In this document: piece by piece, positions 4,999-51,504 of the stretch
How positions within the stretch are numbered: the stretch's first letter is position 1
How the letters are laid out: each line of letters opens with the position of its first letter
Assembly: GCF_021246445.1 (NCBI RefSeq)
Contig: NZ_JAJQXW010000001.1
Span: 1-64,000, forward strand
Source of the DNA: Rhabdothermincola salaria
GTDB taxonomy: Bacteria; Actinomycetota; Acidimicrobiia; Acidimicrobiales; Acidimicrobilacustridaceae
Direction of reading: 5' to 3'
DNA: 64,000 nt
Translations under genes and position numbers: made by a program
The notes under the pieces: model-generated
What the model was told of the DNA's origin: nothing
The model's database searches: none
The model's input: the letters and a program-made list of their open reading frames with translations, nothing else

Positions 4999-5015
4999 TC
5001 TGACGGTCCGTCAGA
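4999..5015. promoter_or_regulatory. Palindromic operator site 1 (TCTGACGGTCCGTCAGA)
   Basis: Perfect 17-bp palindrome just upstream of minus-strand -10 TAGGTT (4985-4990) of the 4950->1473 operon. Confidence 0.8.
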
Positions 5016-5046
5016 AGTCACCCGACCGTGCCGCTCGCCGGGACGG

Positions 5047-5102
5047 GGTGTGGGCGGGTCGCGATGCTGGCGGCGCGGAGCGCCGCGGTGTGGGCGGGTC
5101 GC
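5047..5102. repeat. 16-bp direct repeat GGTGTGGGCGGGTCGC x2 (40-bp period)
   Basis: Copies at 5047-5062 and 5087-5102. Confidence 0.75.
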
Positions 5103-5215
5103 TGGCGCTCCCGTCGCCCACCTGAAGGAAGGCGTCAGCCGACTCGCAACAGGCGGAGGAGCGCAGCGACGGAGCCTCAGACTGGCCACGCGCTTCGCCG
5201 AAGGCGGCGGAGGGA

Positions 5216-5294
5216 GGCTTGCCGACCGGAGCAAGATGTCGCGGCTTGCCGACCGGAGCAAGATGTCGTGGCTTGCCGACCGGAGCAAGATGTC
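5216..5294. repeat. 27-bp tandem repeat x3 (GGCTTGCCGACCGGAGCAAGATGTCGY), each with an internal CTTGC..GCAAG hairpin
   Basis: Units start at 5216, 5243 and 5270; the third unit runs into the TGA stop of the SDR at 5293. Confidence 0.9.
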
Positions 5295-6054
5295 AGAGCC
5301 CGAGGAAGGAGCCTCCGTCGCAGACGACGGTCTGGCCGCTGACGTAGCCGGCGTCGTCGCTGCACAAGAAGGCGGCCACGCCGCCGATGTCGTCGACCGG
5401 GTCGCCGATGCGCCCGAGTGGGGTGCGGGCCTCGATGCTGCCCTTGAGGGTGGGGACCTGGTCGAAGATGTCGGTGAGGGCGGGGGTCTCGGCCACCGGT
5501 GCGATGCAGTTGACCGTGATGCCGTGTGGGCCCCACTCGCGGGCCAGGCTCTTGGCGATGGCCCGCTGGGCGCCCTTCACGGGGGAGTACAGCGGGAGGT
5601 TGGCGCTGCCCTCCACCCCCGAGGGCGAGGTGAGCATGACGAAGCGCCCGGCCGGGCTGGCGGCCAGGTGGGGGAAGGCGGCCTGAGCGCACCAGAAGCT
5701 GGCCCACACCGCGGTGTGCGAGAGCTGGAACCAGACGTCGTCGGGGGTGGACTCGAGGCGGGTGGCCACTCCGCCGGCGAAGGCGTTGTGCACCACGATG
5801 TCGAGGCGGCCGCGGCGCTCGACGGTGTCGGCCACGCAGGCCTCGACGTCGGCTCGGCGGGTGACGTCGGTGGGGAGGCACCAGGCGTCGCCCCCTGCGG
5901 CGCGGATGGACTCGGCCACGGGCTCGCCGGTGGCGGCGCGGCGGGCGGCGACCACCACGGTGGCGCCCTCGGCGGCGAGGCGGCGGGCGATGCCCTCACC
6001 GACACCCTGACCGGCTCCGGTGACGATGGCGACGCGATCGTTGAGCCGGCTCAC
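5293..6054 (-). CDS. SDR family oxidoreductase (FabG-like)
   Basis: TGAGQGVG, YSPVK, GQTVVCDGG; GTGA overlap with upstream gene and GGAGG RBS. Confidence 0.9.
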   Translation of the reverse strand: MSRLNDRVAIVTGAGQGVGEGIARRLAAEGATVVVAARRAATGEPVAESIRAAGGDAWCLPTDVTRRADVEACVADTVERRGRLDIVVHNAFAGGVATRLESTPDDVWFQLSHTAVWASFWCAQAAFPHLAASPAGRFVMLTSPSGVEGSANLPLYSPVKGAQRAIAKSLAREWGPHGITVNCIAPVAETPALTDIFDQVPTLKGSIEARTPLGRIGDPVDDIGGVAAFLCSDDAGYVSGQTVVCDGGSFLGL

Positions 6055-6671
6055 ATCCACAGCCCTCCGTCGACCACGAGGGTCTGGCCCCCGATGTGGG
6101 CAGCGGCCGGCCCGCACAGGAAGGCCAGCACCGCCACCGGATCGGCATCGGGGAGGGCCGGCTCGGCGATCGAGACCGGCCCGGCCGAGTCGGGATCGCC
6201 GAGCACCTCGTCGGGACCGACGGCCATGACGTTGGCGGTGATGCCGTCCGGACCCCACTGGCGGGCGGCCGACTTGGCCAGCAGGTGCACCCCTTCGGCG
6301 GCGGCGGCCCAGTGGGCGTGCCCGGCGCCCCCGGCCAGGGCGATGGTGGGGATCACGAACACCAGTCGTCCACCCTCGGGGCCGAACCGGGCCCGGGCGG
6401 CCACCGCGGTGGCCACGGCGTCGTCGAGCGTGCGCTGCCAGGCCTGGTGGAAGCCGGCGTCGCTGAGCTCGTGGAAGGCGACGGGGCGCACCTCGTCCGG
6501 GTCCCAGGGGGCGAAGACGGCGGCGGCCAGGCGCCCGGTGCCGTCCACGTCGGAGGCGACGTCGTTCCCGGCGGCGGCGAGGCCGTGGCGCAGGTGGTCG
6601 GCCAGCGGCCCGGCGCCCACCACGGCGACGGTGCCGTCGATGCGCGCCACGGCGGTGGTGTCGATCGGCAT
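6051..6671 (-). CDS. Degenerate SDR-fold protein lacking YxxxK
   Basis: SDR C-terminal features (KSAARQWGPDGITAN, GQTLVVDGG) but HWAAAAEG in place of YxxxK and a shortened Rossmann motif. Confidence 0.75.
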   Translation of the reverse strand: MPIDTTAVARIDGTVAVVGAGPLADHLRHGLAAAGNDVASDVDGTGRLAAAVFAPWDPDEVRPVAFHELSDAGFHQAWQRTLDDAVATAVAARARFGPEGGRLVFVIPTIALAGGAGHAHWAAAAEGVHLLAKSAARQWGPDGITANVMAVGPDEVLGDPDSAGPVSIAEPALPDADPVAVLAFLCGPAAAHIGGQTLVVDGGLWM

Positions 6672-16954: not shown

Positions 16955-16993
16955 GTGACCCCTCCGTTCGGCCGGTCGGAGTGCCGGCGCGTT

Positions 16994-17010
16994 TCTGACG
17001 GACCGTCAGA
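16994..17010. promoter_or_regulatory. Palindromic operator site 2 (TCTGACGGACCGTCAGA)
   Basis: Perfect palindrome between divergent genes, overlapping minus-strand -10 TAATCT. Confidence 0.8.
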
Positions 17011-17098
17011 TTACACCCGTGCCCCTGCTCCGCCACCCCGACCACCGGCCCGCTACGGTCGCCCGCACCACCCGTCCCCGCCCGAGGAGCACCCGCAC

Positions 17099-17983: not shown

Positions 17984-18144
17984 CCTGCTCCCCGGGCCGG
18001 TGTGGTGGCCACGCCCGGGCCGCGGATGGACCACAGCAACCGGCCCGAGCACCCCTCGCCACCCTGACCCGGCGACATGGGATGGTCCAGGTCCTCGTCT
18101 GGTGCCGCGCGGTTGGCGCTCGGCGCTGTGTGTGGGGCCGGTCC

Positions 18145-18797: not shown

Positions 18798-18803
18798 GGC
18801 CGA

Positions 18804-18832
18804 AAGATACTACTGGAGTAGTAGACATTCAA
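18804..18832 (-). promoter_or_regulatory. TA promoter (-35 TTGAAT, 17 bp, -10 TATCTT) with palindrome TACTACT-GG-AGTAGTA (18808-18823)
   Basis: Read directly; the palindrome lies in the spacer, as expected for an autoregulatory operator. Confidence 0.7.
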
Positions 18833-19100: not shown

Positions 19101-19139
19101 GTTGCCATGGATCTGACGTAACGTCAGATCCATGGCAAC
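19101..19139. promoter_or_regulatory. Operator site 3 (TCTGACGTAACGTCAGA, 19112-19128) within a perfect 39-bp palindrome overlapping the ALDH start codon
   Basis: GTTGCCATGGATCTGACGT-A-ACGTCAGATCCATGGCAAC; -10-like TAACGT at its centre. Confidence 0.8.
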
Positions 19140-20601
19140 GACCACCACGAACGCGTACCGGCAGCTCATCGGGGGCGAGTGGCGCGACGGCAGCGCCGGC
19201 ACCTACGAGATCGTCAATCCGGCCACCGAAGAGGTCGTGGCCGAGGCCCCTGAGGCCTCCGCCGACGACGTGCGGGCGGCCTCGGCCGCCGCCGCCGAGG
19301 CCTTCCCGGCCTGGAGCCGCACCGACCCCCGCGAGCGGGCCGCGCTGCTCGAAGCGGCCGGCAAGCGCCTGGCCGAGCGCACTCCCGAGCTCATCCCCCT
19401 GGTGATCGCCGAGGCCGGCGCCACGTCGTCGGTCGGGTCGCTCATGCAGATCCCGGTGGCCATCAGCCGCTTCGATCGCTACGCCCGCGGCGCCATGACC
19501 GACCTCACCCGGGGCCTCCCGCCCCAGCCCATCGGGGCCACGCCGTTGGCCGCCGGTGCGCTCATGGGCGGCGTCGTCAACCGCGTCCCGGTCGGCGTGG
19601 TGGCCTGCATCTCGCCGTACAACTTCCCCACCACCAACATGGTCGGCAAGATCGCTCCTGCGTTGGCCGTCGGGTGCACGGTGGTCATGAAGCCGGCCCC
19701 TCAGGACCCGCTCTGCGTCATCGAGCTGGCCAAGATCCTCGACGAGGTGGGCTTCCCGCCCGGCGTGGTCAACATCGTCACCGGGGCCAAGCCCGAGGTG
19801 GGCGCCGTGCTCGTCGACGACGACAACGTCGACATGGTGAGCTTCACCGGCTCCACGTCGGTGGGCATCAAGATCATGGAGGCGGGCGCCCGCACCATGA
19901 AGCGCCAGCTCCAGGAGCTCGGCGGCAAGGGCGCCTGCGTGGTCACCGAGGACGCCGACATCGACAAGGCCGTCACCGGCATCGCCAGCGTCTGGGCCTT
20001 CCACTCCGGTCAGATCTGCACCGCCCCCACCCGGGTCATCGTCCACCGCAGCCGCTACGACGAGCTGGTGGGCAAGTTGGCCGAGGCGGCCAAGGCCCTC
20101 AAGGTGGGCGACCCCCTCGACGCCGAGACCGTCGTGGGCCCGGTCATCTCCGGCATCCAGCGCGACCGGATCCTGGGCCACATCGCCGACGGTGTCGCCG
20201 AGGGCGCCGAGCTGGTCGTCGACGGCCGCGATCCGGGCATGGACAAGGGCTACTACGTGGGCCCCACCCTGCTGGCCGGGTGCAACAACGGCATGAGCCC
20301 GGTGCGCGAGGAGATCTTCGGCCCGGTCGTCGTGGTGGTCCCCTTCGACGACGAGGACGAGGCCATCGACATCGCCAACGACAGCGACTACGGCCTGCTC
20401 TCCTACGTGTACTGCGAGGACGGGGCCCGCGGCTACGAGCTGGCCAAGCGGATCCGCTCCGGCACCGTGGGCATCAACACCGTGCAGCGCCACCACGAGG
20501 TGCCCTTCGGGGGCTTCAAGCTCTCCGGTGTGGGTCGCGACGGCGGCGACTGGGGCCTAGAGGCCTACACCGAGCTGCAATCGGTCATCTGGCCGGCCTG
20601 A
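19132..20601 (+). CDS. Aldehyde dehydrogenase
   Basis: PYNFP, KPA, SFTGST, QELGGK, GQICTAP, EEIFGPV, PFGGFKLSG. Confidence 0.95.
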   Translation: MATTTTNAYRQLIGGEWRDGSAGTYEIVNPATEEVVAEAPEASADDVRAASAAAAEAFPAWSRTDPRERAALLEAAGKRLAERTPELIPLVIAEAGATSSVGSLMQIPVAISRFDRYARGAMTDLTRGLPPQPIGATPLAAGALMGGVVNRVPVGVVACISPYNFPTTNMVGKIAPALAVGCTVVMKPAPQDPLCVIELAKILDEVGFPPGVVNIVTGAKPEVGAVLVDDDNVDMVSFTGSTSVGIKIMEAGARTMKRQLQELGGKGACVVTEDADIDKAVTGIASVWAFHSGQICTAPTRVIVHRSRYDELVGKLAEAAKALKVGDPLDAETVVGPVISGIQRDRILGHIADGVAEGAELVVDGRDPGMDKGYYVGPTLLAGCNNGMSPVREEIFGPVVVVVPFDDEDEAIDIANDSDYGLLSYVYCEDGARGYELAKRIRSGTVGINTVQRHHEVPFGGFKLSGVGRDGGDWGLEAYTELQSVIWPA

Positions 20602-20703
20602 TCACATCCACGGGGATGGCGCGGCACCCGGCAGGGGGTCGCCTTCCCGAGTCCACCACGACATCGCCGGGCCACGGCCCGGCCGCACCCAACGGGGGAG
20701 CAC

Positions 20704-21810
20704 ATGAAGGGCATCGTCTACACCGGTGACAAGGGCGCAGAGGTCGTCGACGGGCTCGAGGTCCGCGACGCCGGCCCCGGGGAGGTCGTCGTCAAGGTCA
20801 TGGCGGCCGGGGTGTGCCACTCCGACATCACCGCCGCGTCCGGCGCCTTCGGCTGGCCGGCCCCGGCCGTGCTCGGCCACGAGGGCGCCGGCATCGTCGA
20901 CCAGGTCGGCACCGGTGTCACCAACGTCGAGGTGGGCGACCACGTCATCATCTCCACCCTGGCGGCGTGCGGCATGTGCCAGGCCTGCGGCGCCGGCAAG
21001 CCCACCCGCTGCCGCAAGACCCTCGGCAACATGGCCCAGCCCTTCACCCTCGACGGCGAGGCCTGCTGGAACTTCGCGGCGGCGTCGGTGTTCACCGAGC
21101 GCACCGTCATCAAGGCCATCCAGGCGGTGAAGATCCCCAAGGACGTGCCCTTCACGTCCGCCTGCCTGGTGGGCTGCGGTGTGATGACCGGCGCCGGCGC
21201 GGTGATGTACCGCACCAACGTCGAGGTGGGCCAGACCGCCGTGGTCTACGGCTGCGGCGGTGTGGGCCTCAACGCCATCCAGGCCCTGCGGGTGCGCCGG
21301 GCCAGCCGCATCATCGCCATCGACGTCGACCCGCAGAAGGAGGAGCTGGCCAAGCAGTTCGGTGCCACCGACTTCCTCGACGGTCGGGCCGACGACATCG
21401 TCGAGCAGGTGCGGACACTCGAGCCCTACGAGGAAGGCGAGCTGTCGGGGCCGTTCGGGGCCGGTGGCGTCGACTGGGTCTTCGACGTCGTGGCCCGGCC
21501 GGAGGTCACCTTCAACGCGCTGAAGATGCTCGACTGGGGCGGCAACGTGGTGATCATCGGCACCCCCGGTGGCGACGCCAAGTTCGAGCTTCCGTACCAG
21601 GACTTCACCCAGAACGAGCGGGGCGTCATCGGTGTGCGGGCCGGTTCCTACAGCCCCCACGTGCACATGCCCCAGATCGTCGAGCTGTACCGCCGCGGCG
21701 AGTTCATGCTCGACGAGCTGGTCACCAACACCTATCCGCTCGAGGGCTTCCACGACGCGGTGCACGACATGGAGAGCGGCGGCGTCGCCCGCGGCGTGCT
21801 CACCTTCTAG
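20704..21810 (+). CDS. Zn-dependent alcohol dehydrogenase (MDR)
   Basis: GVCHSD, GHEGAG, CGMCQAC..C, GCGV.TG, GCGGVG. Confidence 0.93.
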   Translation: MKGIVYTGDKGAEVVDGLEVRDAGPGEVVVKVMAAGVCHSDITAASGAFGWPAPAVLGHEGAGIVDQVGTGVTNVEVGDHVIISTLAACGMCQACGAGKPTRCRKTLGNMAQPFTLDGEACWNFAAASVFTERTVIKAIQAVKIPKDVPFTSACLVGCGVMTGAGAVMYRTNVEVGQTAVVYGCGGVGLNAIQALRVRRASRIIAIDVDPQKEELAKQFGATDFLDGRADDIVEQVRTLEPYEEGELSGPFGAGGVDWVFDVVARPEVTFNALKMLDWGGNVVIIGTPGGDAKFELPYQDFTQNERGVIGVRAGSYSPHVHMPQIVELYRRGEFMLDELVTNTYPLEGFHDAVHDMESGGVARGVLTF

Positions 21811-21868
21811 ACGCTCCACCGGCCGTCGGGCTCCCGGCGGCCGCACCGACCACGCCCACGGGGGACAC

Positions 21869-22624
21869 ATGGAACAGCGGTTCGCGAACAAGCACGCGCT
21901 CGTCACGGGCGCCGGATCGGGCATCGGGCGGGCCACTGCGATGCGCCTGGCCGCCGAGGGGGCCACGGTCGCGGTCATGGACGTGGTGGCCGACGGAGCG
22001 GCCGACACGGTGGCCGAGATCGAGGGCGCCGGCGGGTCAGCCATGGCCGTGTCCTGCGACGTGCGTTCGTGGGAGGCCACCGAAGCCGCCGTCGGGCAGG
22101 TCACGGCGGAGCTCGGGCGGCTCGACGTGGTGTGCAACGTCGCCGGGATCGGGGGCTTCCAGGAGTCCCACACCGCCGACCCCGAGATGTGGGACCGCAT
22201 GGTGGGCATCAACCTCACCGGGACCTTCCACGTGTGCCGGGCCGTGCTGCCGGGCATGGTCGAGCGCGGCGAGGGCTCGATCGTCAACACCGCCTCGACG
22301 GCGGGGATCATGGGCCAGCCCTGGAGCGCGGCGTACTGCGCGTCCAAGGGGGGCGTGATCATGCTCACCAAGGCGCTGGCCACCGAGTACGACCTGCCCC
22401 TGCGCATCAACGCGGTGGCCCCCGGTGGGGTCGACACCCCGATGTACGGGCAGTTCATGCCGCCCGAGGGCGTCGACTGGAACCGCATGAAGAAGATGAG
22501 CCGCGACAACGTGGCGCCGGCGTCGCCGGAGCGCCTCGCCCGCTTCTTCGCCTTCGTGGCCTCCGACGACGCCGACTACATGACCGGCGCCATCGTCGTG
22601 GCCGACGGCGGCATCAGCATCTGA
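21869..22624 (+). CDS. SDR family oxidoreductase
   Basis: TGAGSGIG, YCASK; GGGGGA RBS. Confidence 0.9.
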   Translation: MEQRFANKHALVTGAGSGIGRATAMRLAAEGATVAVMDVVADGAADTVAEIEGAGGSAMAVSCDVRSWEATEAAVGQVTAELGRLDVVCNVAGIGGFQESHTADPEMWDRMVGINLTGTFHVCRAVLPGMVERGEGSIVNTASTAGIMGQPWSAAYCASKGGVIMLTKALATEYDLPLRINAVAPGGVDTPMYGQFMPPEGVDWNRMKKMSRDNVAPASPERLARFFAFVASDDADYMTGAIVVADGGISI

Positions 22625-22685
22625 CCGACGCGCTCCGGCACCGGGCCGGGGCCACATCTCCACACGATCCGACACGGGGGAACCA

Positions 22686-23609
22686 ATGCCGCTGAACGAC
22701 CACTTCCGAGAGCTGTCCGCCAAGGTCCGCAACTGGGGCCGGTGGGGCGACGACGACCGCATCGGCACCATCAACTTCATCGACGACGCGGCCCGCCGGC
22801 GAGCGGCGGCCTCGGTGAAGAGCGGCAAGGCCATCTCGCTGGCCCTCCCGCTGAACTTCGACGGCCCCCAGCTCGGCTTCATCGGCCGCCGCCAGAACCC
22901 GCAGCACACCATGCTCGAGATCAACAGCCCCGGGGTGCTCGATCCGGAGTTCAAGTCCAGCGACGACATGATCGTGCTGTGCCTGCAGGCCGCCACCCAC
23001 TGGGACGGGCTGTCCCACGTGAGCTACGACGGTCAGCTCTACAACGGCGTGCCGGCCGACACGATCACCGTCGACGGGGCCACCGTGCTCGGCATCGACC
23101 ACATCGACACCCTCACCGGTCGGGGGGTGCTGCTCGACATCGCCCGCCTGAAGGGCGTCGACAAGCTCGACGGGGGCTACGCCGTCACCGGCGACGACCT
23201 CGACGCCGCCGCCGAGATGGCCAAGGTCACCATCGAGTCGGGCGACATCGTGCTCTTGCGCACGGGGGCCATGCAGATGCTCAAGGCCGGCGACAAGATG
23301 AACTACACGATGACCGCCGCGGGCCCCTCGTTGCAGAGCGTCGAGTGGTTCCACCGCAACGAGATCGCCGCCGTCGCCGTCGACAACGGCACCTTCGAGG
23401 TGTTTCCCTGCGAGTACGAGGACATGCCGCTGCCGGTGCACCTGCTGCACCTGGTCGACATGGGCCTCACCCAGGGCCAGCACTTCGACCTCGAGGAGCT
23501 GGCAGCCGACTGCGCCGACGACGGCCAGTACACCTTCTTGTTGTCGGCGCCGCCCCAGCCCATCACCCACGCCACCGGGTCGCCGGTCAACCCCATCGCC
23601 CTGAAGTAG
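22686..23609 (+). CDS. Cyclase family metal-dependent hydrolase
   Basis: NWGRWG.DD..GT.N, THWDGLSH, GRGVLLDI, GSPVNPIA. Confidence 0.88.
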   Translation: MPLNDHFRELSAKVRNWGRWGDDDRIGTINFIDDAARRRAAASVKSGKAISLALPLNFDGPQLGFIGRRQNPQHTMLEINSPGVLDPEFKSSDDMIVLCLQAATHWDGLSHVSYDGQLYNGVPADTITVDGATVLGIDHIDTLTGRGVLLDIARLKGVDKLDGGYAVTGDDLDAAAEMAKVTIESGDIVLLRTGAMQMLKAGDKMNYTMTAAGPSLQSVEWFHRNEIAAVAVDNGTFEVFPCEYEDMPLPVHLLHLVDMGLTQGQHFDLEELAADCADDGQYTFLLSAPPQPITHATGSPVNPIALK

Positions 23610-23698
23610 TCGGCGAGGCGCCGTCCGGGCGTGTTCGGAGCACCGCTGAACTAGAACTAGATTGCAGTGGTCCGACGACTCCAGGGGGAGCCACACCA

Positions 23699-24592
23699 AT
23701 GACGATGCCCGAGGGCCTCCCGATCATCGACACGATGATCGGGTTCCCGGCCAAGGACATGAAGGCCCAGTACGCCTTCATCACCCAGCAGACCAAGGAC
23801 AAGGAGTCCAAGGAAGAGTTCGCCTTCCCGGCGGAGTACATGTTCAAGAAGCCGCCGGACAAGGAAAAGGCGCTCCAGGAGTCCGACGACCCGGTGGCCT
23901 ACACCCTGGGCGAGATGGACAAGTGGGGCGTGGCCAAGGGCATGGTCGGCGTCGGCGGTCGCGGCGAAGAAGGTGCCGAGTCCACCGGTGAGGAGGCCAT
24001 CGAGCGCCACCCCGACCGCTTCTTCGGTGCCGTGAACGGCGATCCCAACGAGGGCATGGCCGGCATCGAGAAGATCGTGCGGGCCTACGAGACCTGGGGT
24101 GTGAAGGCCATCACCATGTTCCCGGCGGGGTGCTTCCCGCAGGTGGCCATCAACGACAAGAAGATGTACCCGATCTACGCCAAGGCCTGCGAGCTCGACA
24201 TCCCGGTCTTCGTCTGCACCGGCATTCCGGGTCCCCGGCTCAAGTTCCAGGTGCAACACGTCGAGCACGTCGACGAGGTCATGTACGACTTCCCCGAGCT
24301 CACCTACGTGAGCCGCCACGGCTGCGAGCCATGGACGGAGCTCATGGTGAAGCTCATGCTCAAGTGGCCGGGCCTGCACTACTCCACCTCGGCCTTCGCG
24401 CCGAAGCACTACAACCAGCGCATCATCGATTACGCCAACACCCGTGGGGCCGACAAGGTGATCTACGCCGGCTACTTCCCCATGGGGCTGTCGCTCGAGC
24501 GGATCATGACCGAGATGAAGAACGTCCCGTTCAAGGACGAGGTCTGGCCCAAGTTCCTGCACCAGAACGCCGAGCGCGTCCTGAAGCTGTAG
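23699..24592 (+). CDS. Amidohydrolase_2 family protein
   Basis: MYPIYAKACELDIPV, RHGCEPW, STSAFAPK, KFL..NA.RVL. Confidence 0.85.
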   Translation: MTMPEGLPIIDTMIGFPAKDMKAQYAFITQQTKDKESKEEFAFPAEYMFKKPPDKEKALQESDDPVAYTLGEMDKWGVAKGMVGVGGRGEEGAESTGEEAIERHPDRFFGAVNGDPNEGMAGIEKIVRAYETWGVKAITMFPAGCFPQVAINDKKMYPIYAKACELDIPVFVCTGIPGPRLKFQVQHVEHVDEVMYDFPELTYVSRHGCEPWTELMVKLMLKWPGLHYSTSAFAPKHYNQRIIDYANTRGADKVIYAGYFPMGLSLERIMTEMKNVPFKDEVWPKFLHQNAERVLKL

Positions 24593-24745: not shown

Positions 24746-24762
24746 TCTGATGGAGCGTCAGA
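24746..24762. promoter_or_regulatory. Operator site 4 (TCTGATGGAGCGTCAGA)
   Basis: Matches the consensus; just downstream of -10 TACTGT (24730-24735), upstream of the SDR-fadE30-ipdF operon. Confidence 0.75.
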
Positions 24763-27681: not shown

Positions 27682-27698
27682 GCGGCCGGCGCCCACCG

Positions 27699-31885: not shown

Positions 31886-31909
31886 CGGTCCAGTGTGGTC
31901 CGGGAGCGC

Positions 31910-32665
31910 TCAGCCTTCGTCGATCACCGGCGGTCGGTCGCCGCCTCCGTGGGCGGCGACGTCGGCGCCGGTGACGTAGCCGGCGAGGTCGGAGGCCAAC
32001 CAGACGGCCACGTCGCCGATCTCGGTGGGCTTCGCCAGACGCTGGATGGGGATGAGCGACTCCACCTGCTGGCGACGCTCGCCTTCGCCGTAGAAGAGCT
32101 CGGCCTGCTCGGTGAGGATGTAGCCGCAGGTGATGGAGTTCACCCGCACCGTCGGTGCCCACTCCATGGCCAAGGTGGTGGTGAGCTGCTTGAGCCCGGC
32201 CTTGGCCGCCCCGTAGGCGGCAGTGGTGGGGGAGGGGCGCTGGGCCACGATGGACCCGACGTTGACGATGGACCCGCCGCCGTCCTGGTCCTTCATGTGG
32301 TGGTGGGCGCGCTGGGCCACGTAGAGGGGGGCCAGCAGGTTGAGCGCCACGATGCGCTCGGAGAACCGGGGCGACGCGTCGGCGGAGTCGGCGGGGGGCG
32401 AGCCGCCGGCGTTGTTGACCACGCAGTCGAGGCGTCCGGCGGCCTCGTGGGCGGCGTCGACCGCGGCCCAGGCGGCCTCGCCCTCGCGCAGGTCGGCGGG
32501 GACGAAGATCCAGCCTTCGGGCAGCGGCTGCTCGGGTTCACGGCGGGCGCACACCACGACGGTGGCTCCGGCGTCGGCGAAGCGCTGGGCGATGCCGCGA
32601 CCGACGCCCTTGGTGCCCCCGGTGACCAGCACCGCCTTGCCGCTCAGATCGATCTCCAGCGCCAC
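31910..32665 (-). CDS. SDR family oxidoreductase (Rv3549c-like)
   Basis: TGGTKGVG, NNAGGSP, RPSPTTAAYGAAKAG, LA.EWAP.VRVN, LFYG, HGGG; GAGGAGG RBS before GTG. Confidence 0.85.
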   Translation of the reverse strand: MALEIDLSGKAVLVTGGTKGVGRGIAQRFADAGATVVVCARREPEQPLPEGWIFVPADLREGEAAWAAVDAAHEAAGRLDCVVNNAGGSPPADSADASPRFSERIVALNLLAPLYVAQRAHHHMKDQDGGGSIVNVGSIVAQRPSPTTAAYGAAKAGLKQLTTTLAMEWAPTVRVNSITCGYILTEQAELFYGEGERRQQVESLIPIQRLAKPTEIGDVAVWLASDLAGYVTGADVAAHGGGDRPPVIDEG

Positions 32666-32728: not shown

Positions 32729-32745
32729 TCTGACGGACCGTCAGC
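32729..32745. promoter_or_regulatory. Operator site 5 (TCTGACGGACCGTCAGC)
   Basis: One terminal mismatch; upstream of minus-strand -10 TAGCGT (32704-32709); abuts the nuoF-like stop codon. Confidence 0.78.
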
Positions 32746-35207: not shown

Positions 35208-35258
35208 GGCGGTCCTCGTGCAGGCGAAGGAGGGCACGTCTCGGGTGACGTTGATTAC

Positions 35259-35274: not shown

Positions 35275-35356
35275 GAATCGAGCGAGGGTGGACGCTGCGG
35301 CCGAGGTCGGCGCCGCGCCTCTGCCCTCCCCCCACCTCCTGCGAGCGGGCCCTTCC

Positions 35357-37481: not shown

Positions 37482-37498
37482 TCTGACTGCCCATCAGA
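37482..37498. promoter_or_regulatory. Operator site 6 (TCTGACTGCCCATCAGA)
   Basis: Directly upstream of -10 TAGCGT (37506-37511) of leaderless echA20. Confidence 0.75.
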
Positions 37499-37519: not shown

Positions 37520-38326
37520 ATGGGCATCGAAGTCACCGTCGGCGACGACGGCATCGCGGAGGTCGTGCAGAACTGCCCTCCGGTCAACGCACTCACCGTG
37601 GCGCAGTGGTTCCAGCTGGCCGACGAGGTGCAGCGCCTCGGTGAGGACAAGGCCGTCCGAGCGGTCATCCTGCGGGCCGAGGGCAAGGGCTTCAACGCCG
37701 GGGTCGACATCAAGGAGATGCAGAACACCGAGGGCTTCGATGCCCTCATCGGCGCCAACCGGGGCTGCTTCGCCGCCTTCGCCGCCGTGTACGACTGCCC
37801 CGTCCCCGTCATCAGCGCGGTGCACGGCTTCTGCGTCGGTGGTGGCATCGGCCTCGTCGGCAACTCCGACGTCATCGTGGCTTCCGACGACGCCTTCTTC
37901 GGTCTCCCCGAGGTCGACCGGGGTGCGCTCGGCGCCGCCACCCACCTGGCCCGGCTGGTGCCACAGCACAAGATGCGCGAGATGGTCTACACGTCGGGCA
38001 CCGCCACCGCCGCTCAGCTGCACGGCTGGGGTTCGGTGTCGCAGGTCGTGCCCCGCGACGAGCTGCTCGCCGCCACCCGCGAGGTCGCCGGCAACATCGC
38101 GGCCAAGTCGCCCACCGTCATCCGCGCCGCCAAGGAGAGCCTCAACGGCATCGACCTGTGGGACGTGAAGAAGAGCTACCGCTTCGAGCAGGGGTTCACC
38201 TTCGAGCTCAACCTGTCCGGCGTGGCCGACGAGCTGCGCGACGACTTCGTCGAGCACGGCCACCAGGGCGACAAGGGCTCTGCTGCCAGCGGCGCTGACG
38301 CCACGAACACCGAGAAGGGGAAGTAG
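37520..38326 (+). CDS. echA20: Enoyl-CoA hydratase EchA20-like (HIP ring D cleavage)
   Basis: PPVNAL, GFNAGVDIKEMQ, LPEVDRGALGAATHLARLVPQH, SYRFEQGFTFELNL. Confidence 0.9.
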   Translation: MGIEVTVGDDGIAEVVQNCPPVNALTVAQWFQLADEVQRLGEDKAVRAVILRAEGKGFNAGVDIKEMQNTEGFDALIGANRGCFAAFAAVYDCPVPVISAVHGFCVGGGIGLVGNSDVIVASDDAFFGLPEVDRGALGAATHLARLVPQHKMREMVYTSGTATAAQLHGWGSVSQVVPRDELLAATREVAGNIAAKSPTVIRAAKESLNGIDLWDVKKSYRFEQGFTFELNLSGVADELRDDFVEHGHQGDKGSAASGADATNTEKGK

Positions 38327-39184
38327 ATGGCCAACAAGCGCACGACCGAGGACGAGGCGGTCGCCACGCTGTCCGACGGCATGACCATCGGCATCGGGGG
38401 TTGGGGCAGCCGTCGCAAGCCCATGTCGCTGGTGCGGGCGCTGCTGCGCAGCGACCTCACCGACCTCACGATCGTCAGCTACGGCGGACCCGACGTCGGT
38501 CTGCTGTGCGCGGCCGGCAAGGTGCGCAAGCTGGTCTACGGCTTCGTGTCACTCGACTCCATCGCCCTCGAGCCCCACTTCCGGGCCGCGCGCCAGGCCG
38601 GCACCATCCCCGAGGTGGTCGAGTACGACGAGGGCATGCTCCAGTGGGGCCTCTACGCCGCCTCGCTGCGCCTGCCCTTCCTGCCCACCAGGGCCGGGCT
38701 GGGTTCCGACGTGGTCAAGAACTCCCCGGACCTGCGCACGGTCACCAGCCCCTACGCCGACGCCGAGGAGCTCCTGGCCGTGCCGGCCATCCCCCTCGAC
38801 GCCGCCTTCGTGCACCTCAACCGGGCCGACGAGCGGGGCAACGCCCAGTTCCTCGGCCCCGACCTCTACTTCGACGACCTCTTCCTCGGCGCCGCCGCCA
38901 CCGGAGGTCGCTTCGTGTCGGTCGAGAAGGTCGTCGCCACCGAGGAGCTGCTGGCCAACGGCTCGTTCCACACCCTGAAGATCAACCGATCGATGGTCGA
39001 CGGTGTGATCGAGGCGCCCAACGGCGCCCACTTCACCAACTGCCAGCCCGACTACGAGCGCGACGAGGCCTTCCAGAAGGAGTACGCCAAGGCCGCCGCC
39101 GATCCCGAGGCCTGGGCCCAGTTCGAACAGACTTACCTCTCCGGCTCCGAAGCCGACTACCAGCAGGCGGTGAAGAACCGATGA
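38327..39184 (+). CDS. ipdA: COCHEA-CoA hydrolase subunit alpha (CoA-transferase fold)
   Basis: GIGGWGSRRKPM.LVRA, YGFVSLDSI.LEP, RAGLGSDV, GAHFT; synteny echA20-ipdA-ipdB-ipdC. Confidence 0.9.
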   Translation: MANKRTTEDEAVATLSDGMTIGIGGWGSRRKPMSLVRALLRSDLTDLTIVSYGGPDVGLLCAAGKVRKLVYGFVSLDSIALEPHFRAARQAGTIPEVVEYDEGMLQWGLYAASLRLPFLPTRAGLGSDVVKNSPDLRTVTSPYADAEELLAVPAIPLDAAFVHLNRADERGNAQFLGPDLYFDDLFLGAAATGGRFVSVEKVVATEELLANGSFHTLKINRSMVDGVIEAPNGAHFTNCQPDYERDEAFQKEYAKAAADPEAWAQFEQTYLSGSEADYQQAVKNR

Positions 39185-39954
39185 GCGATGCCAACACCAC
39201 CACCGACGCCACCCTCGCCGAGATCTGCGTGGCCGCCGTCGCCGATGCCTTCGCCGGCGACGGCGAGATCTTCGCCTCGGGCATGGGCACCATCCCCATG
39301 CTCGGCGCCCGCCTGGCCCGGGCCACCAACGAGCCCGATCTGCTGATCAGCGACGGCGAGGCCTTCTTCGTCGCCAACGACCTCGCCGTCGGCAGCTCCG
39401 ACAAGCAGGTCGAGGGCTGGATCCCGTTCCGCACCGTGTTCGACACGCTGTGGGGCGGGCGGCGCCACGTGGTCATGGGTGCCAGCCAGATCGACGCCCA
39501 CGGCAACCAGAACATCGCCAACATCGGCCCGTGGGACAAGCCCAAGGCCCAGCTCCTCGGTGTGCGCGGCGGCCCCGGCAACACCATCAACCACACCACC
39601 ACCTACTTCATCCCCAAGCACACCGACCGGGTGTTCGTGCCCAAGGCCGACACCGTGTCGGGCGTGGGCTACGACCGCGCCGCCGAGCTGGGCGACTGGG
39701 TGAAGGCCCACCACGAGATCCGCCGGGTGGTCACCAACCTGGCCGTGCTCGACTTCGACTCGCCCGACCACCGCATGCACCTGGTGTCCACCCACCCCGG
39801 TGTCAGCGTCGACGACGTGGTGTCCAACACCGGCTTCGAGCTGGTCGTCGGCGACGACGTGGCGACCACCCGGCTGCCCACCGCCGAGGAGCTGCGCATC
39901 CTGCGCGAGGTCCTCGACCCCAAGGGCTTCCGCGAGCGCGAGCTGCCGTCGTGA
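39181..39954 (+). CDS. ipdB: COCHEA-CoA hydrolase subunit beta
   Basis: GARLARAT, VEGW.PFR.VF, GRRHVVMG..QID.HGNQNI, GVRG.PGNTINH. Confidence 0.9.
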   Translation: MSDANTTTDATLAEICVAAVADAFAGDGEIFASGMGTIPMLGARLARATNEPDLLISDGEAFFVANDLAVGSSDKQVEGWIPFRTVFDTLWGGRRHVVMGASQIDAHGNQNIANIGPWDKPKAQLLGVRGGPGNTINHTTTYFIPKHTDRVFVPKADTVSGVGYDRAAELGDWVKAHHEIRRVVTNLAVLDFDSPDHRMHLVSTHPGVSVDDVVSNTGFELVVGDDVATTRLPTAEELRILREVLDPKGFRERELPS

Positions 39955-39970
39955 CCGCCGAGGAGCGCTG

Positions 39971-41071
39971 ATGCACCCCGCCCTGCACACCCCCCTGGTC
40001 GACCTGCTCGGCTCGAAGTACCCGATCGTGCAGACGGGCATGGGCTGGGTGGCCGGCCCCAGCCTGGTGTCGGCCACCTCCAACGCCGGCGCGTTCGGCA
40101 TCATCGCCTCGGCGACGATGACCTACGACGAGCTGGCCCGGGCCATCACCACGGTGAAGGGGCGCACGCAGGCCCCGTTCGGCGTGAACCTGCGCGCCGA
40201 CGCCGACGACATCCGGGCCCGGCTCGACCTGTTGATCGCCGAGGGCGTCCCGGTGGCCTCGTTCGCCCAGGCCCCCAAGAAGGACCTGATCGACCACCTC
40301 CACGACCACGGCGTGAAGGTCATGCCCTCCATCGGGGCCAAGCGCCACGCCGAGAAGGTCATGGAGTGGGGTGTCGACGCCATCCTGGTCCAGGGCGGCG
40401 AGGGCGGCGGCCACACCGGTGCGGTGCCCACCTCCCTGCTGCTCCCCGAGGTCGTCGACGTGGTCGACGGCCGGGTGCCGGTGGTGGCCGCCGGCGGCTA
40501 CTTCGACGGGCGCGGCCTGGTCTCGGCGCTGGCCTACGGAGCCAGCGGCGTGGCCATGGGCACCCGCTTCCTGCTCACCTCCGACTCGTCGGTGCCGGTG
40601 GAGGTCAAGCAGGCCTATCTGGGCACACCGGTCACCGGCACCGTCGTCACCACCAAGATCGACGGCGCTCCCCATCGGGTCATCCGCACCGAGCTGGTCG
40701 ACGAGATGGACTCTGCGTCCGCGCTCACCGCCGTGCCCAAGGCGGTGGCCAATGCCGCCAAGTTCCGCTCCTACACCGGCTTGTCGTGGCTCGAGATGGC
40801 CCGCGAGGGCCTGGCCATGAAGAAGCGCATGGACCTGTCGTGGGCCGAGGTCATCATGGCCGGCAACACGCCCATGCTCACCAAGGCCACCCTGGTCGAC
40901 GGCCGTCTCGATGCCGGCATCCTGCCCACCGGGCAGGTGGTGGGCGTCATCGACGACCTGCCCACCGCCGCCGAGGTGGTCGACCGCATCGTGGCCGAGG
41001 CCGGCGAGGTGCTCGGTCGCCTCACCGGTGGCGTGCCCGCTCGCCGATCCCCGGCCCGCGAGTCCGACTGA
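39971..41071 (+). CDS. ipdC: IpdC-like reductase (nitronate monooxygenase family)
   Basis: PIVQTGMGWVAG, PFGVNLRADA, QGGEGGGHTG, MGTRFLLT. Confidence 0.85.
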   Translation: MHPALHTPLVDLLGSKYPIVQTGMGWVAGPSLVSATSNAGAFGIIASATMTYDELARAITTVKGRTQAPFGVNLRADADDIRARLDLLIAEGVPVASFAQAPKKDLIDHLHDHGVKVMPSIGAKRHAEKVMEWGVDAILVQGGEGGGHTGAVPTSLLLPEVVDVVDGRVPVVAAGGYFDGRGLVSALAYGASGVAMGTRFLLTSDSSVPVEVKQAYLGTPVTGTVVTTKIDGAPHRVIRTELVDEMDSASALTAVPKAVANAAKFRSYTGLSWLEMAREGLAMKKRMDLSWAEVIMAGNTPMLTKATLVDGRLDAGILPTGQVVGVIDDLPTAAEVVDRIVAEAGEVLGRLTGGVPARRSPARESD

Positions 41072-41114
41072 GCACACCGGTGTCCGAGACCCGATCCCGT
41101 GAGAGGCGAACCCC

Positions 41115-41591
41115 ATGAGCGATGACACCCCGAACGCCCAGACCGTGCTCGACGGGCCCGACGCGGTGAGGGCCGCGGTGGGCACCCACCTCGGCCACAG
41201 CGACTGGCTCGAGGTCGACCAGGAGCGCGTGAACCTGTTCGCCGACGCCACCGGCGACCACCAGTGGATCCACGTCGATCCGGAGAAGGCGAAGGACGGC
41301 CCCTTCGGCGGTCCCATTGCCCACGGCTACCTCACCCTTTCGCTGTCCAACCTCTTCCTGCCCCAGATCATCGAGACCAAGGGCTTCTCGGCCGGGGTGA
41401 ACTACGGCGCCGACAAGGTGCGGTTCATCTCCCCGGTCAAGGTGGGCGACCGCATCCGCGGGGGTGCCGAGCTGGTCGAGGTCACCGACGTGAAGGGCGG
41501 CATCCAGACCCTGGTGCGCATCACCATCGAGATCGAGGGCGGCGCCAAGCCGGCGTGCGTCATCGACTCGCTCAGCCGCTGGCTGTCCTGA
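41115..41591 (+). CDS. MaoC family dehydratase
   Basis: FADATGDHQWIHVD, IAHGYLTLSL, NYG.DKVRF. Confidence 0.9.
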   Translation: MSDDTPNAQTVLDGPDAVRAAVGTHLGHSDWLEVDQERVNLFADATGDHQWIHVDPEKAKDGPFGGPIAHGYLTLSLSNLFLPQIIETKGFSAGVNYGADKVRFISPVKVGDRIRGGAELVEVTDVKGGIQTLVRITIEIEGGAKPACVIDSLSRWLS

Positions 41592-41661
41592 ACCGGCGCC
41601 GCCGAGCGGTGGCCCCGCCTACGCTCACGATGTCCATCGCACGTCAGCGCAGGGGGAGAAC

Positions 41662-42819
41662 GTGACCAATCCGATCGGGCCGCTCACCGGAGCCGACGAG
41701 TGGTTCAGCCACCAGATCGTCGACACCTTCGCCGCGGTCGGCACCAGCGACCCGGCATGGACCGAGAAGGTCTGTGCCATGGCCGCGGCCACCGACGGGA
41801 GCCTGCAGCTGGGCTTCGGTCTGGGCAAGTACACCAACCGCAACGTCATGGACTGCTACGCCGGGATCTCTCGTGGCGTCGAGCAGATCACGGTGCGGGC
41901 CAGTCGCCGCCTGGCCGACGACGCCGAGCTCATCGGCGCCGGCCCGGTGCGCTACGAGATCGTGGAGCCCCTGCGCCAGATCCGCTTCGTGCTCGAGGCC
42001 AACGACACCCAGCCCATCGCCTTCGACTGGCTGTTCACCGCCGAGCTGCCCGCCACCCTCGAGGACCGCACCCACACCCGCCAGGGCTACCGCGTGTCGG
42101 CCGACCTCGTGCGCTACCACCAGATCGGCACCTGTTCGGGATGGGTGGAGGTCGACGGCGAGCGCACCGAGCTCGACCCCGACTCCTGGGTGTCGACCCG
42201 CGACCACTCGTGGGGGGTGCGCTACGACATCGGGGAGCCGGCCACCGACCTCGAGCCGACGCGCGGCCTCGAGGGCGGCACGTTCCAGTTCGTCTGGAGC
42301 CCCATCCTCATGGAACGGCCCGACGGCACCCGCTACGGGTTGTTCCTCAACGTGTCCAAGATGGCCTTCCCCGGGTTCGAGCAGAAGACCACGATGGCCA
42401 TGGTGGAGCACCCCGACGGCCGCATCGAGCGCATCGTCGACCTCGAACCCGAGCTCGCCTACGACCCCACCAACCGCCGCCTGCGCGGCGGCACGCTGCA
42501 CGCCACGCTCGAGGACGGCTCCGCCCGGGCGCTGCAGGTGGAGGTGGTCTCCGACACCGGCTTCCACCTCGGTGCCGGCCTGTACTTCGGCTTCGCCGGG
42601 CACCACCACGGCGAGTGGCGAGGACCGCTCAACGTGGAGGGTGAGCGCATCGACGACTGCACCACCGCCGAGAACGCCCGACGCCTGCACCAGATCCGCG
42701 ACACCGTGGTGCGCGTCACCGACCCCGTCGGTGGCGGGGTGGGCTACGGCAACATGCAGCCCATCGTCACCGGGGCGTTCCCCGACCTGGGCCTCGACGC
42801 CGACTCCTCGTTCATCTGA
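41662..42819 (+). CDS. Hypothetical protein (tocopherol-cyclase/lipocalin-like beta fold)
   Basis: RYHQ.G...G.V..DG, RDHSWGVR motif; AGGGGGAG RBS. Confidence 0.7.
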   Translation: MTNPIGPLTGADEWFSHQIVDTFAAVGTSDPAWTEKVCAMAAATDGSLQLGFGLGKYTNRNVMDCYAGISRGVEQITVRASRRLADDAELIGAGPVRYEIVEPLRQIRFVLEANDTQPIAFDWLFTAELPATLEDRTHTRQGYRVSADLVRYHQIGTCSGWVEVDGERTELDPDSWVSTRDHSWGVRYDIGEPATDLEPTRGLEGGTFQFVWSPILMERPDGTRYGLFLNVSKMAFPGFEQKTTMAMVEHPDGRIERIVDLEPELAYDPTNRRLRGGTLHATLEDGSARALQVEVVSDTGFHLGAGLYFGFAGHHHGEWRGPLNVEGERIDDCTTAENARRLHQIRDTVVRVTDPVGGGVGYGNMQPIVTGAFPDLGLDADSSFI

Positions 42820-49765: not shown

Positions 49766-49983
49766 CTGCGGCTCCTTGGTGGGTCGGGATCGCTCGATCG
49801 ATGGGGCAGACGGCCGGCCGGGACGGACGAGGACGGTCGCGACGGGCGCGAGCCGGGTGGCCCGTCCGTTCAGCGTCCCCCGAGAGGCGTTCTGATATTG
49901 GATCCTGGCACACCGGGCACGATCCGCGCCCGGAGCCGACTCGCCGAGCGCCGCGACCGACGACAGGCCTCGACGCGGCCCCG

Positions 49984-51219
49984 TCAGGCCTTGAAGCGAT
50001 AGGTGACCGGCATCCGCTTGGGGCCGTTCACCAGCACCGACGCCGTCTGTTCCACCGGGCCCGCGGCCTCGATTGACTCGAGTCGCCCGAGCAGCTCGCC
50101 GAACAGCGCCCGGATCTCCAAGCGGGCCAGGTGGGCACCCAGGCAGTAGTGGCGACCGAACCCGAAGCCCAGGTGCTTGTCGGCCTCGGGGTTGGTGACG
50201 TCGAACGTGAACGGGTCGGTGAAGACGCGCTCGTCTCGGTTGGCCGACTGGTAGGAGAGCAACAACCAGTCGCCCTCGGCGATCCGGTGGCCCGAGGCCA
50301 GCGTGTAGTCCTGCTGGGCGGTGCGCATGAAGTGCTTCACCGGGCTCACCCAGCGCACGATCTCGTCGGCCGCCCCGTCGACGAGCGACGGATCGGCCAG
50401 CAGCTTCTCGAGCTGCGCCGGGTGCTCGAGCAGGGCCTGCATGCCTCCGGCGACGGCGTTCGAGGTCGTGTCGTGGCCGGCGGTGGCCACGATCAGGTAG
50501 TAGCCGTAGGTGTCCATGTCCTCGAGCGGCTTGCCGTCGATCTCGCCGTTGGCGATCACGGTGGCGAGGTCGTTGGTGGGGTGCGCCCGCCGCTCGGCGT
50601 TCACCCCGGTGAACATGGCGATCACGTCCATGATCACCGCCATGGCCTGCTCGTCTTCTCCCACCCGCTCGAAGTCGGGGTCGCTGTCGGCGAAGAGCTC
50701 CTGGGTGAGGCGCAGCATCTTCGGGAACTGCTCCTCGGGCAGGCCGAGGATGTCGAGGATGACCCGCAGCGGGTAGTTCATGGCCACGTCGGTGGCGAAG
50801 TCGCAGGCCCCACCGCGGGCTGCCATCTCGTCGACGGAGCGGGTGGCCTGCAGGGCCACCTGGTCGGCGAGCTTCTTGACCTGCCCGGGCTTGAACCAGT
50901 CGTTCACCAGCGCCCGGTGGGCCCGGTGCTCCTCGCCGTCCATCTGGATGAGCGTGTTCACCGGGCTCTCCTTGCGCTCTTGCGTCGCCGGAGGGTCGGC
51001 CATCACGACCGGGGCCGGAGCGTTGGTGAAGACGTCCGAGTTCTTCTCCACCTCCATGACCTCGGGCAGGCCCAGCACCGCCCAGAAGGGGTGGCGGCCC
51101 AGCCCCTCGACCCGGTGGAGGGGGCCCTCGGCCCGTAGCTCGGTGGCGACGGCATGCCAGCGTTCGGGGTCGGCATAGGCCGCCGGGTCGATGAAGATGC
51201 GCCCTCGTTCGTCGCTCAC
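49984..51219 (-). CDS. Cytochrome P450
   Basis: AGHDTT, EIVRW.SP, HLGFGFGRHYCLG; GAGGAG RBS. Confidence 0.93.
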   Translation of the reverse strand: MSDERGRIFIDPAAYADPERWHAVATELRAEGPLHRVEGLGRHPFWAVLGLPEVMEVEKNSDVFTNAPAPVVMADPPATQERKESPVNTLIQMDGEEHRAHRALVNDWFKPGQVKKLADQVALQATRSVDEMAARGGACDFATDVAMNYPLRVILDILGLPEEQFPKMLRLTQELFADSDPDFERVGEDEQAMAVIMDVIAMFTGVNAERRAHPTNDLATVIANGEIDGKPLEDMDTYGYYLIVATAGHDTTSNAVAGGMQALLEHPAQLEKLLADPSLVDGAADEIVRWVSPVKHFMRTAQQDYTLASGHRIAEGDWLLLSYQSANRDERVFTDPFTFDVTNPEADKHLGFGFGRHYCLGAHLARLEIRALFGELLGRLESIEAAGPVEQTASVLVNGPKRMPVTYRFKA

Positions 51220-51340
51220 CACTTCTCCTCGTCGTCGTGCCCCGGCCGCCGCACGCGGCACCGTCGGGCCTGGTGGGTTCCGAGCCTTCCCCACCGCGGG
51301 CCGGGTGGTCCAGAGCCGAAGGTCCCCGCCCCCGCGTAGC

Positions 51341-51455
51341 TGTCGGGAGAGGGCGTCGACAGGTGGCGCCCTTTTCCTGACAGGTACGGGTGAGCGGGTG
51401 TTGTTGTCGGGAAAGGGCGTCGGCAGGTGGCGCCCTTTCGTGACAGGTACGGGTG
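51341..51455. repeat. Two tandem ~52-bp REP-like hairpin elements
   Basis: Copies at 51341-51392 and 51405-51455: TGTCGGGARAGGGCGTC-GRCAGGT-GGCGCCCTTT..TGACA-GGTACGGGTG. Confidence 0.8.
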
Positions 51456-51487
51456 GGGGGTTCTCGGCTTGCACGTCGTTTGTCGGA

Positions 51488-51504
51488 TCTGACGGACCCT
51501 CAGA
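51488..51504. promoter_or_regulatory. Operator site 7 (TCTGACGGACCCTCAGA)
   Basis: Abuts -10 TAGGGT (51505-51510) of the leaderless gene at 51518; divergent from the P450. Confidence 0.78.

Follow-up and report, generated by a model that had tools for sequence, protein, structure and literature searches.

The DNA analysed here (the window) comprises the first 64,000 nucleotides of contig NZ_JAJQXW010000001.1, designated C1, of Rhabdothermincola salaria, a member of the Acidimicrobiia with a 3.9-Mb genome of 72% GC (G000; its other contigs are given as C2 and C3). An initial annotation of the window had reported seven copies of a 17-bp palindrome and interpreted them as operators of a steroid-catabolic regulon, and we recovered each of the seven at its coordinate and with its sequence. 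The pattern TCTGAY-N5-RTCAGA was matched exactly at five of the seven sites and with one mismatch at two, and all seven lie between genes as claimed, according to gene calls made for this analysis that leave 11.4% of the genome intergenic. The expected number of occurrences in the window was 0.31, and none of 100 shuffled sequences reached seven. On the basis of their sequence and position, the palindromes are likely repressor operators, distinct from the boxes of KstR and KstR2.

Three of the window operons preceded by a palindrome contain homologues of the KstR2 regulon (echA20-ipdA-ipdB-ipdC, an SDR [short-chain dehydrogenase/reductase]-fadE30-like-ipdF set, and an Rv3549c-type SDR). Operator 6 (37482..37498) precedes an operon on the + strand (37520..42819) encoding an EchA20-type hydratase (PRK07938, 415 bits against a cut-off of 260), IpdA (E values of 3.5e-105 and 2.3e-102 against PDB entries 6co6 and 6con), IpdB, an IpdC-type FabK/NMO reductase, a MaoC dehydratase and an Rv3169-family protein. 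A TAGCGT hexamer begins 7 nt downstream of this operator and the echA20 ATG lies 22 nt downstream; the echA20 transcript is probably leaderless, and a divergent PPOX gene occupies 36996-37430. Operator 4 (24746..24762) begins 10 nt past TACTGT, within the first part of the transcribed region, and is followed by an operon (24828..28847, + strand) for an SDR that scores below the PRK07791 cut-off, a FadE30-like acyl-CoA dehydrogenase, an IpdF-type SDR (PRK07831, 434 bits against 336) and a class III CoA-transferase. We take PRK07831 to represent IpdF, an assignment supported by synteny with kstR2-fadA6 in Streptomyces. Operator 5 (32729..32745) lies 64 bp upstream of the Rv3549c-type SDR gene, with TAGCGT beginning 19 nt downstream; this SDR (PRK07856, 347 bits against 255) and a 453-aa protein without a family match are encoded in the operon at 30524..32665 (− strand). 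The Rv gene names used throughout are those to which we presume the PRK models correspond. These assignments are backed by the synteny in Streptomyces and by the accessible part of PMC5380842, where the gene order in Table 1 agrees with that of the 37520..42819 operon.

Genes for NuoF-like, ArsR-type helix-turn-helix, carrier-protein-like and globin-like proteins (32746-36878) separate the Rv3549c-type SDR gene from echA20. In genomes G095 and G002 these two genes are directly divergent with one common site, and the accessible text of PMC3068626 describes Rv3549c and Rv3550 as likewise divergent with one site. The direct divergence in G095 and G002 suggests that the 32746-36878 insertion likely split one promoter into two, each half retaining a site.

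The other four palindromes (4999, 16994, 19112 and 51488) head operons without a KstR2-regulon counterpart. Operator 1 (4999..5015) lies 49 bp upstream of an operon on the − strand (1473..4950) which, by gene calls and Pfam, encodes an uncharacterised 268-aa protein, two NAD-dependent epimerase/dehydratases and an SDR; TAGGTT begins 8 nt downstream, so that the site covers the −35 region. Operator 2 (16994..17010) overlaps TAATCT on the − strand between divergent genes for an amidohydrolase_3 protein (15233-16954, −) and a TIGR03619 F420-dependent luciferase-like monooxygenase (LLM) family oxidoreductase (17099-17983, +). Operator 3 (19112..19128) includes a TAACGT hexamer and ends 4 nt before the start of an aldehyde dehydrogenase (ALDH) gene, the transcript of which is probably leaderless. 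The operon that begins there (19132..24592, +) continues with a Zn alcohol dehydrogenase (ADH), an SDR, a cyclase and an amidohydrolase_2 protein, and the Streptomyces orthologues of its ALDH, ADH and cyclase are 50-53% identical. Operator 3 is also the centre of a 39-bp perfect palindrome (19101-19139) that takes in the ALDH start codon. Operator 7 (51488..51504) is directly followed by TAGGGT and, 14 nt downstream, by the ATG of an operon (51518..54098, +) encoding an HMG-CoA-synthase-like/ChsH2 OB-fold fusion and a thiolase (PRK06157); its transcript is likely leaderless too, and a divergent cytochrome P450 gene lies 266 bp away.

The claim that the palindromes overlap or flank a TANNNT −10 box was borne out, in that such a hexamer occurs within −20/+26 of all seven sites, compared with 545 of 2102 upstream windows (26%) in the background, with the strand at divergent sites picked after inspection. 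The offsets of the hexamers span −33 to +19 across the seven sites. A sigma-70 consensus scanner applied to 16900-25000 returned no promoters and was uninformative. The sites cover the −35 region, the −10 region or the start, an arrangement that would fit with repression.

The initial annotation had proposed a genome-wide scan, and in ours all 12 matrix matches above 18 bits were intergenic, 10 of them being sites used to train the matrix. When the matrix was built from the seven window sites only, which score 22.8-32.4 bits in a leave-one-out comparison, five matches above 20 bits were found outside the window (C1:64224, C3:46703, C3:240718, C1:1429860 and C2:218234), every one of them intergenic, with weaker partner sites at C1:64062 and C3:240784. 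A possible eighth window site at 49891 did not hold up, as its score of −8.7 bits is equalled or beaten by 1872 of 445396 intergenic positions. The bare pattern is also matched exactly by the anticodon arm of tRNA-Arg(ACG) (C2:174713; the tRNA is at C2:174686-174760, or L003:8687-8761), which implies a background of about one match per genome and makes this arm a source of false positives for any scan with the pattern. We left C2:218234 out of the regulon because it aligns partly to the tRNA-Arg arm and its neighbouring genes lack a Pfam match. The flanks of the sites do not align beyond the motif, except for about 10 bases common to 16994 and 24746, and the motif is thus not a dispersed repeat of the repetitive extragenic palindrome (REP) or miniature inverted-repeat transposable element (MITE) kind. 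A REP-like dispersed repeat with 47 BLAST matches in the genome does occur at 5101-5292 and is unrelated to the operator. We conclude that the motif is a real, conserved element of the operator type.

The candidate regulator is encoded just past the window. An operon on the − strand at 61205..64000, which runs to C1:64035 and had been overlooked in the initial annotation, encodes an OB-fold protein, a lipid-transfer-type thiolase and a FadA6-type thiolase (PRK07801, 693 bits against 591), the last assignment being supported by synteny with kstR2 in Streptomyces and in family f71, likely mycobacteria. Its promoter region, past the window end, holds the weak site C1:64062 and the strong site C1:64224, a 27.9-bit site 224 bp beyond the window end. 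This strong site also heads a divergent operon for an acyl-CoA ligase, an Rv3548c-type SDR (C1:65813) and a TetR_C_38 regulator (C1:66754-67509; TetR_N, PF00440, 31.2 bits against 24; TetR_C_38, PF19352, 76.8 against 23.9). The initial annotation had inferred a repressor of HIP (steroid C/D-ring) catabolism, tentatively TetR-like, encoded outside the window: a candidate was indeed found 2.75 kb past the window end, but the regulon is not mainly one of HIP catabolism. Of the Rv3549c/Rv3548c pair named in that annotation, the Rv3549c-type SDR is under a window site, whereas the Rv3548c-type gene lies beyond the window. A search for sites upstream of TetR genes, suggested as a sign of autoregulation, was positive in that the 27.9-bit site heads the operon containing the TetR_C_38 gene.

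The predicted structure of the C1:66754 protein is a confident TetR fold (pLDDT 94), with EthR as its nearest fold and the acyl-CoA sensors FadR and FasR next. EthR is the best match in both sequence and fold (template-modelling score 0.72-0.83, 23% identity), although all three proteins are distant from the candidate and say little on its ligand or operator. In a quick tree of PF19352 proteins, with support from the Shimodaira-Hasegawa-like approximate likelihood ratio test (SH-aLRT), there are two clades, both tied to the motif, and the recognition helix, SPA(T/A)FYQYF, hardly varies in either. The candidate falls in the clade that is sister to the Streptomyces proteins and lacks kbpA-afsK synteny, and a paralogue in the same genome, C1:1699478, falls in the Streptomyces clade.

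To relate the motif to this family, exact-pattern matches were counted in each of 151 genomes of the class. PF19352 members, identified both by protein and by Pfam model, were present in 47 of the 151, all among the 57 genomes with ipdA. These carriers have a median of 7 exact sites (range 1-19), compared with 1.5 (range 1-3) in the 10 ipdA-positive genomes without the family and 1 (range 0-5, largely the tRNA arm) in the 94 genomes with neither. Within the order, all 17 carriers have 6-19 exact sites and all 28 non-carriers 0-3; in genus g9, 9 sites were counted in the sole carrier, against 1 in each of the two non-carriers. Among 251 genomes of the phylum, at least 6 forward matches were found in 15 of 20 strong carriers and in 1 of the 231 others, a group that includes six weak family matches together with three unpublished genomes. 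In G274 there are 12 matches in reverse orientation, partly belonging to a repeat. The motif is also found close to the gene itself: of 30 class loci, 9 have a site at most 140 bp upstream of the PF19352 gene and none has one downstream, and in G095, G002, G019, G056 and G048 the operon head, 2.6-4.2 kb upstream of the orthologue, has an exact site. For distant homologues, the TGAY-N5-RTCA core occurs upstream in 8 of 12 loci (70-110 bp in seven, plus L011), all of them in Planctomycetes or Alphaproteobacteria; several of these loci are near-identical. Three of six plasmid records (Sphingomonas, Massilia and Azospirillum) have the core beside the PF19352 gene or at the operon head, and the Azospirillum cluster repeats the layout of OB-fold gene, site, ligase and TetR. 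On two giant linear plasmids of Streptomyces (L095 and L097), a PF19352-like gene directly follows an NAD-dependent DNA ligase gene, with neither catabolic genes nor sites nearby.

Phylogenetic footprinting showed that each of the seven window promoters has an orthologous counterpart with a site in G095, where two of them share one, and the Operator 2 site is found in G095, in G002 and at the orthologous operon of Streptomyces. A site upstream of ipdA was found in 17 of 30 class loci (17.8-32.8 bits, R. salaria included; the best downstream match scored 9.0), that is, in 17 of 25 PF19352 carriers and in none of 5 non-carriers.

The Streptomyces counterpart bears on what the regulon is for. PF19352 is present in 7 of 7 genomes of this genus (g117), and in G199 its gene lies divergently to those for KbpA and AfsK, both over their NCBIfam cut-offs. 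According to the accessible text of PMC3878966, SCO4421 is a TetR gene adjoining kbpA and afsK, with spore-specific expression, no mutant phenotype and an unclear function. From its position beside kbpA-afsK, the Streptomyces member is likely the SCO4421 orthologue, an identification that rests on synteny; the G199 protein is 39% identical to the C1:66754 candidate. In G199, 13 sites above 12 bits occur in the 80 kb around the PF19352 gene, all intergenic, and head orthologues of the window genes at 15233, 19132, 20704, 22686, 24828 and 25736 (50-61% identity), of C3:240888 and of fadD3. At Streptomyces echA20-ipdAB, in contrast, the new motif is absent from all five ipdA-positive genomes and kstR2 is alongside in all five; a variant of the KstR2-type box was found in four, the fifth promoter being outside the printed stretch. 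G324 has no ipdA and yet 10-11 motif matches. Thus, the assignment of the regulon to HIP catabolism was correct insofar as HIP genes are under the motif, but four of the seven window sites head non-HIP operons, several of which keep the motif in Streptomyces. Judged from these sequence comparisons, the regulon has a conserved core that extends beyond HIP catabolism and in part lies apart from it. The S. avermitilis gene SAV3818, overexpression of which reportedly gave higher antibiotic yields in a 2009 paper, may correspond to SCO4421.

In Actinobacteria, the accepted repressor of C/D-ring catabolism is KstR2, and the gene content of its regulon is present in R. salaria: echA20, ipdA, ipdB, ipdC, ipdF, fadA6, Rv3548c, Rv3549c, fadE30-33 (acyl-CoA dehydrogenases assigned by similarity and synteny only) and fadD3, all except fadD3 being under the new motif. 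C3:240718 heads an acyl-CoA dehydrogenase pair, the Streptomyces orthologue of which is under a KstR2-type box opposite ipdF. As the initial annotation stated, no KstR or KstR2 motif was seen at the window promoters: none of the 16 exact matches to the KstR box TnnAACnnGTTnnA in the whole genome and not the single exact KstR2 match is intergenic, so that the AnCAAGnnCTTGnT box of the echA20, kstR2 and fadE30/fadD3 promoters is lacking, and no intergenic box of either kind was found inside the window even with one mismatch. The reverse holds in f71, where the KstR2 box was detected in 8 of 8 genomes, all eight encode KstR2, and the echA20 promoter has the box in all eight and the new motif in none; seven of the eight boxes are identical to the Rv3549c/Rv3550 site printed in the accessible part of PMC3068626. 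G200 and G363, from other lineages, have PF19352, no KstR2 match and the motif at echA20. Neither box was found within 1.5 kb in three f48 genomes, and the ten ipdA genomes without PF19352 also lack a KstR2 match.

A KstR2-like TetR protein is encoded in the R. salaria genome (C2:804684; E 2e-44 to solved KstR2), unlinked and on another contig; the linkage of kstR2 to fadA6 and ipdF seen in Streptomyces and f71 was not found. Its gene (L051:348-1851, C2:803822-805328) follows two SDR genes and has no KstR2 box in its vicinity, a layout that recurs in G095. With up to 20 candidates scored per genome, this query detected such a protein in 3 of the 151 genomes of the class. The best KstR-like protein reaches only E 2e-18. 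Both the KstR2-like and the KstR-like proteins were rejected as binders of the motif on their distribution.

Several observations weigh against the C1:66754 protein, or its family, as the regulator of these sites. No site was found within 1.5 kb of the TetR gene in 21 of 30 class loci or upstream of ipdA in 8 of 25 carriers, 11 of 47 carriers have at most 3 exact sites, and the Streptomyces gene lacks a site at its own promoter in 7 loci. Streptomyces G374 has the gene but 3 sites, and G303 has 7 sites without a PF19352 match. The FadD3-type ligase of R. salaria (C2:67171; 740 bits against 657) has no site, although one is present at this gene in G002 and in Streptomyces G199. The paralogue C1:1699478 is 43% identical to the Streptomyces protein and the candidate 39%. 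Furthermore, relatedness among the genomes deprives the counts of independence.

In one competing explanation, the same family binds the motif but C1:1699478, of the SCO4421 clade, is the main repressor in R. salaria. This paralogue groups with the Streptomyces clade in the quick tree (99% SH-aLRT) and shares the helix SPAAFYQYF, and in G074, G107 and G116 a single member only 41% identical to C1:66754 occurs together with 7-8 sites. However, there is no site within 10 kb of C1:1699478, which has lost the otherwise near-invariant N-terminal DGR arm, and genomes with a single copy from the C1:66754 clade (G048, G071 and G083) have 10-19 sites, one of which, in G083, scores 30 bits and precedes the gene by 41 bp. 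We therefore regard the paralogue as an unlikely main repressor, if the most serious of the competitors.

Alternatively, another transcription factor that travels with the gene set may bind the motif, the TetR_C_38 gene being a mere regulon member. Such a factor could account for the sites in G303 and for G374 and the several class carriers with the family but few sites, and the genome has 41 TetR and 8 GntR genes, of which a part was profiled across genomes. Against this, the motif accompanies PF19352 into Planctomycetes and Proteobacteria, immediately preceding the gene there, and the 10 ipdA-positive genomes without PF19352 lack it, which makes an independent factor quite improbable. It is harder still to credit that the sites are promoter elements or RNA hairpins. 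The CTGAC half-site does resemble a −35 hexamer, at 4999, 37482 and C3:240718 a gap of 7-8 nt separates the end of the site from the −10 hexamer and puts CTGACG at −35, and tRNA anticodon arms have the same sequence shape; nevertheless, the offsets to the −10 hexamer vary (−33, −20, −10, 0, 7, 8, 18 and 19), conservation extends to both half-sites and the 5-bp spacer, and the likely transcript start is downstream of most sites. Least credible of all is that the C2:804684 protein switched specificity to this motif: despite its similarity to KstR2 and the lack of an intergenic KstR2 box in the genome, it occurs in three class genomes as against 47 with the motif-tracking PF19352, its recognition helix is near canonical KstR2, no motif site lies near its gene, and in G014 a KstR2-like gene adjoins classic KstR2 boxes in a genome with only 2 matches to the pattern.

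Taken together, the comparisons strongly favor a repressor of the PF19352 family as the binder of the motif, and the C1:66754 TetR_C_38 protein is probably the one that binds WTCTGAC-N5-GTCAGAW in R. salaria. The palindrome, which at 10 or more promoters lies between −35 and +20, would be its operator; a dimer on the two CTGAC half-sites would block RNA polymerase, repressing a broad regulon for acyl-CoA catabolism, with the HIP genes among its members, as well as the operon of the regulator itself, and a hydrophobic pathway intermediate would release the dimer. Gene content and analogy incline us slightly towards a CoA thioester as the effector, and HIP-CoA itself is a possible but doubtful choice. 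In Acidimicrobiia the family would cover genes that are under KstR2 in mycobacteria and Streptomyces, and its Streptomyces member (likely SCO4421) would retain control of fadD3 and the non-HIP half. More speculatively, the family, including the Streptomyces gene next to afsK, may act as master repressor of an extensive and so far undescribed catabolic pathway of actinobacteria, the upper part of which feeds HIP-like CoA esters into the ipd module without canonical KstD/HsaA, with KstR2 later having taken over the ipd module in mycobacteria and Streptomyces. The conserved upper part would then tentatively comprise two amidohydrolase types, F420 enzymes, the cyclase, ALDH/ADH, paired acyl-CoA dehydrogenases, thiolase/OB-fold pairs and FadD3. 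Among upper-ring enzymes of the R. salaria genome, the best HsaA and KstD matches score below cut-off (272 bits against 450 and 363 against 789) and two Rieske/KshA_C proteins pass Pfam; none of these HsaA-, KstD- or Rieske/KshA_C-type genes has the motif.

Other loci stand apart from the regulon. An operon at C1:1537974-1545190 (L160:5975-13191), with an Ltp2-type lipid-transfer thiolase over cut-off, a CasI-like steroid-CoA ligase (710 bits against 900) and a weak KstR-like TetR, resembles a side-chain module and has no motif. In the window, a two-gene insert in the cluster (18145-18794, − strand), where an open reading frame (ORF) for a 78-aa antitoxin-like protein overlaps one for a 125-aa PIN-like protein (Pfam PIN E 0.001, under cut-off) with a short palindrome upstream, is likely a VapBC-type toxin-antitoxin pair. 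A phosphonate oxygenase pair and an ester hydrolase without an operator site are encoded at 58321-61200, and an HNH-domain protein (Pfam E 3e-6) at the contig start (153-1391).

These results suggest that a class of bacteria likely runs KstR2-type genes under an unrelated TetR protein and operator, the exchange being clean at one orthologous promoter, and they gather many uncharacterised enzymes into one candidate pathway. They also supply a predicted operator and target list for a regulator found in all seven Streptomyces genomes sampled. Since a S. coelicolor deletion mutant, K319, has already been described, without a phenotype in the accessible text of PMC3878966, the question can be tested at once. 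SCO4421 is named only in that paper among the full texts searched, and its accessible text gives neither an operator nor targets. No description of the motif or regulon was found in the full-text literature searched, a scope outside which RegPrecise, subscription journals and the supplements of motif papers fall; the accessible parts of PMC2000904, PMC8708139, 10.64898/2026.09.18.752586, PMC10832544 and PMC6988585 held nothing relevant.

Among known systems, the TetR protein SAV151 of S. avermitilis has listed sites with the same TCTGAC/GTCAGA half-sites (PMC10933834, Table 2, in its accessible part); the likeness is to these listed sites only, which have a spacer of at least 10 bases rather than 5, and the target is a local set of three genes. 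Lcin1 and Lcin2 of Nocardioides simplex (PMC7593942) and the EdcR operator (PMC8700777) are, in the accessible text of these papers, likewise non-KstR motifs at steroid catabolic genes, but the sequences of Lcin1 (TCCCGGTSACCGGGA) and of the EdcR palindrome differ from the motif described here, and Lcin2 is described as non-palindromic. The closest parallel is the KstR2 regulon, which, in the accessible parts of PMC3068626 and PMC5380842, has a TetR repressor with a palindromic operator, encoded inside a regulated operon, and acts at the same promoters (echA20-ipdAB-ipdC, Rv3549c/Rv3548c, fadE30-ipdF and fadA6). In contrast, the operator here is the 17-bp TCTGAC-N5-GTCAGA as opposed to the 14-bp AnCAAGnnCTTGnT, at least 10 promoters have it compared with three for KstR2, the candidate shows no significant pairwise match to the local KstR2-like protein (E 0.18), and its 24 PDB matches include no KstR2 entry. 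As far as these sequences allow us to judge, the regulon likely works as KstR2 does at the HIP genes, yet is not a KstR2 regulon.

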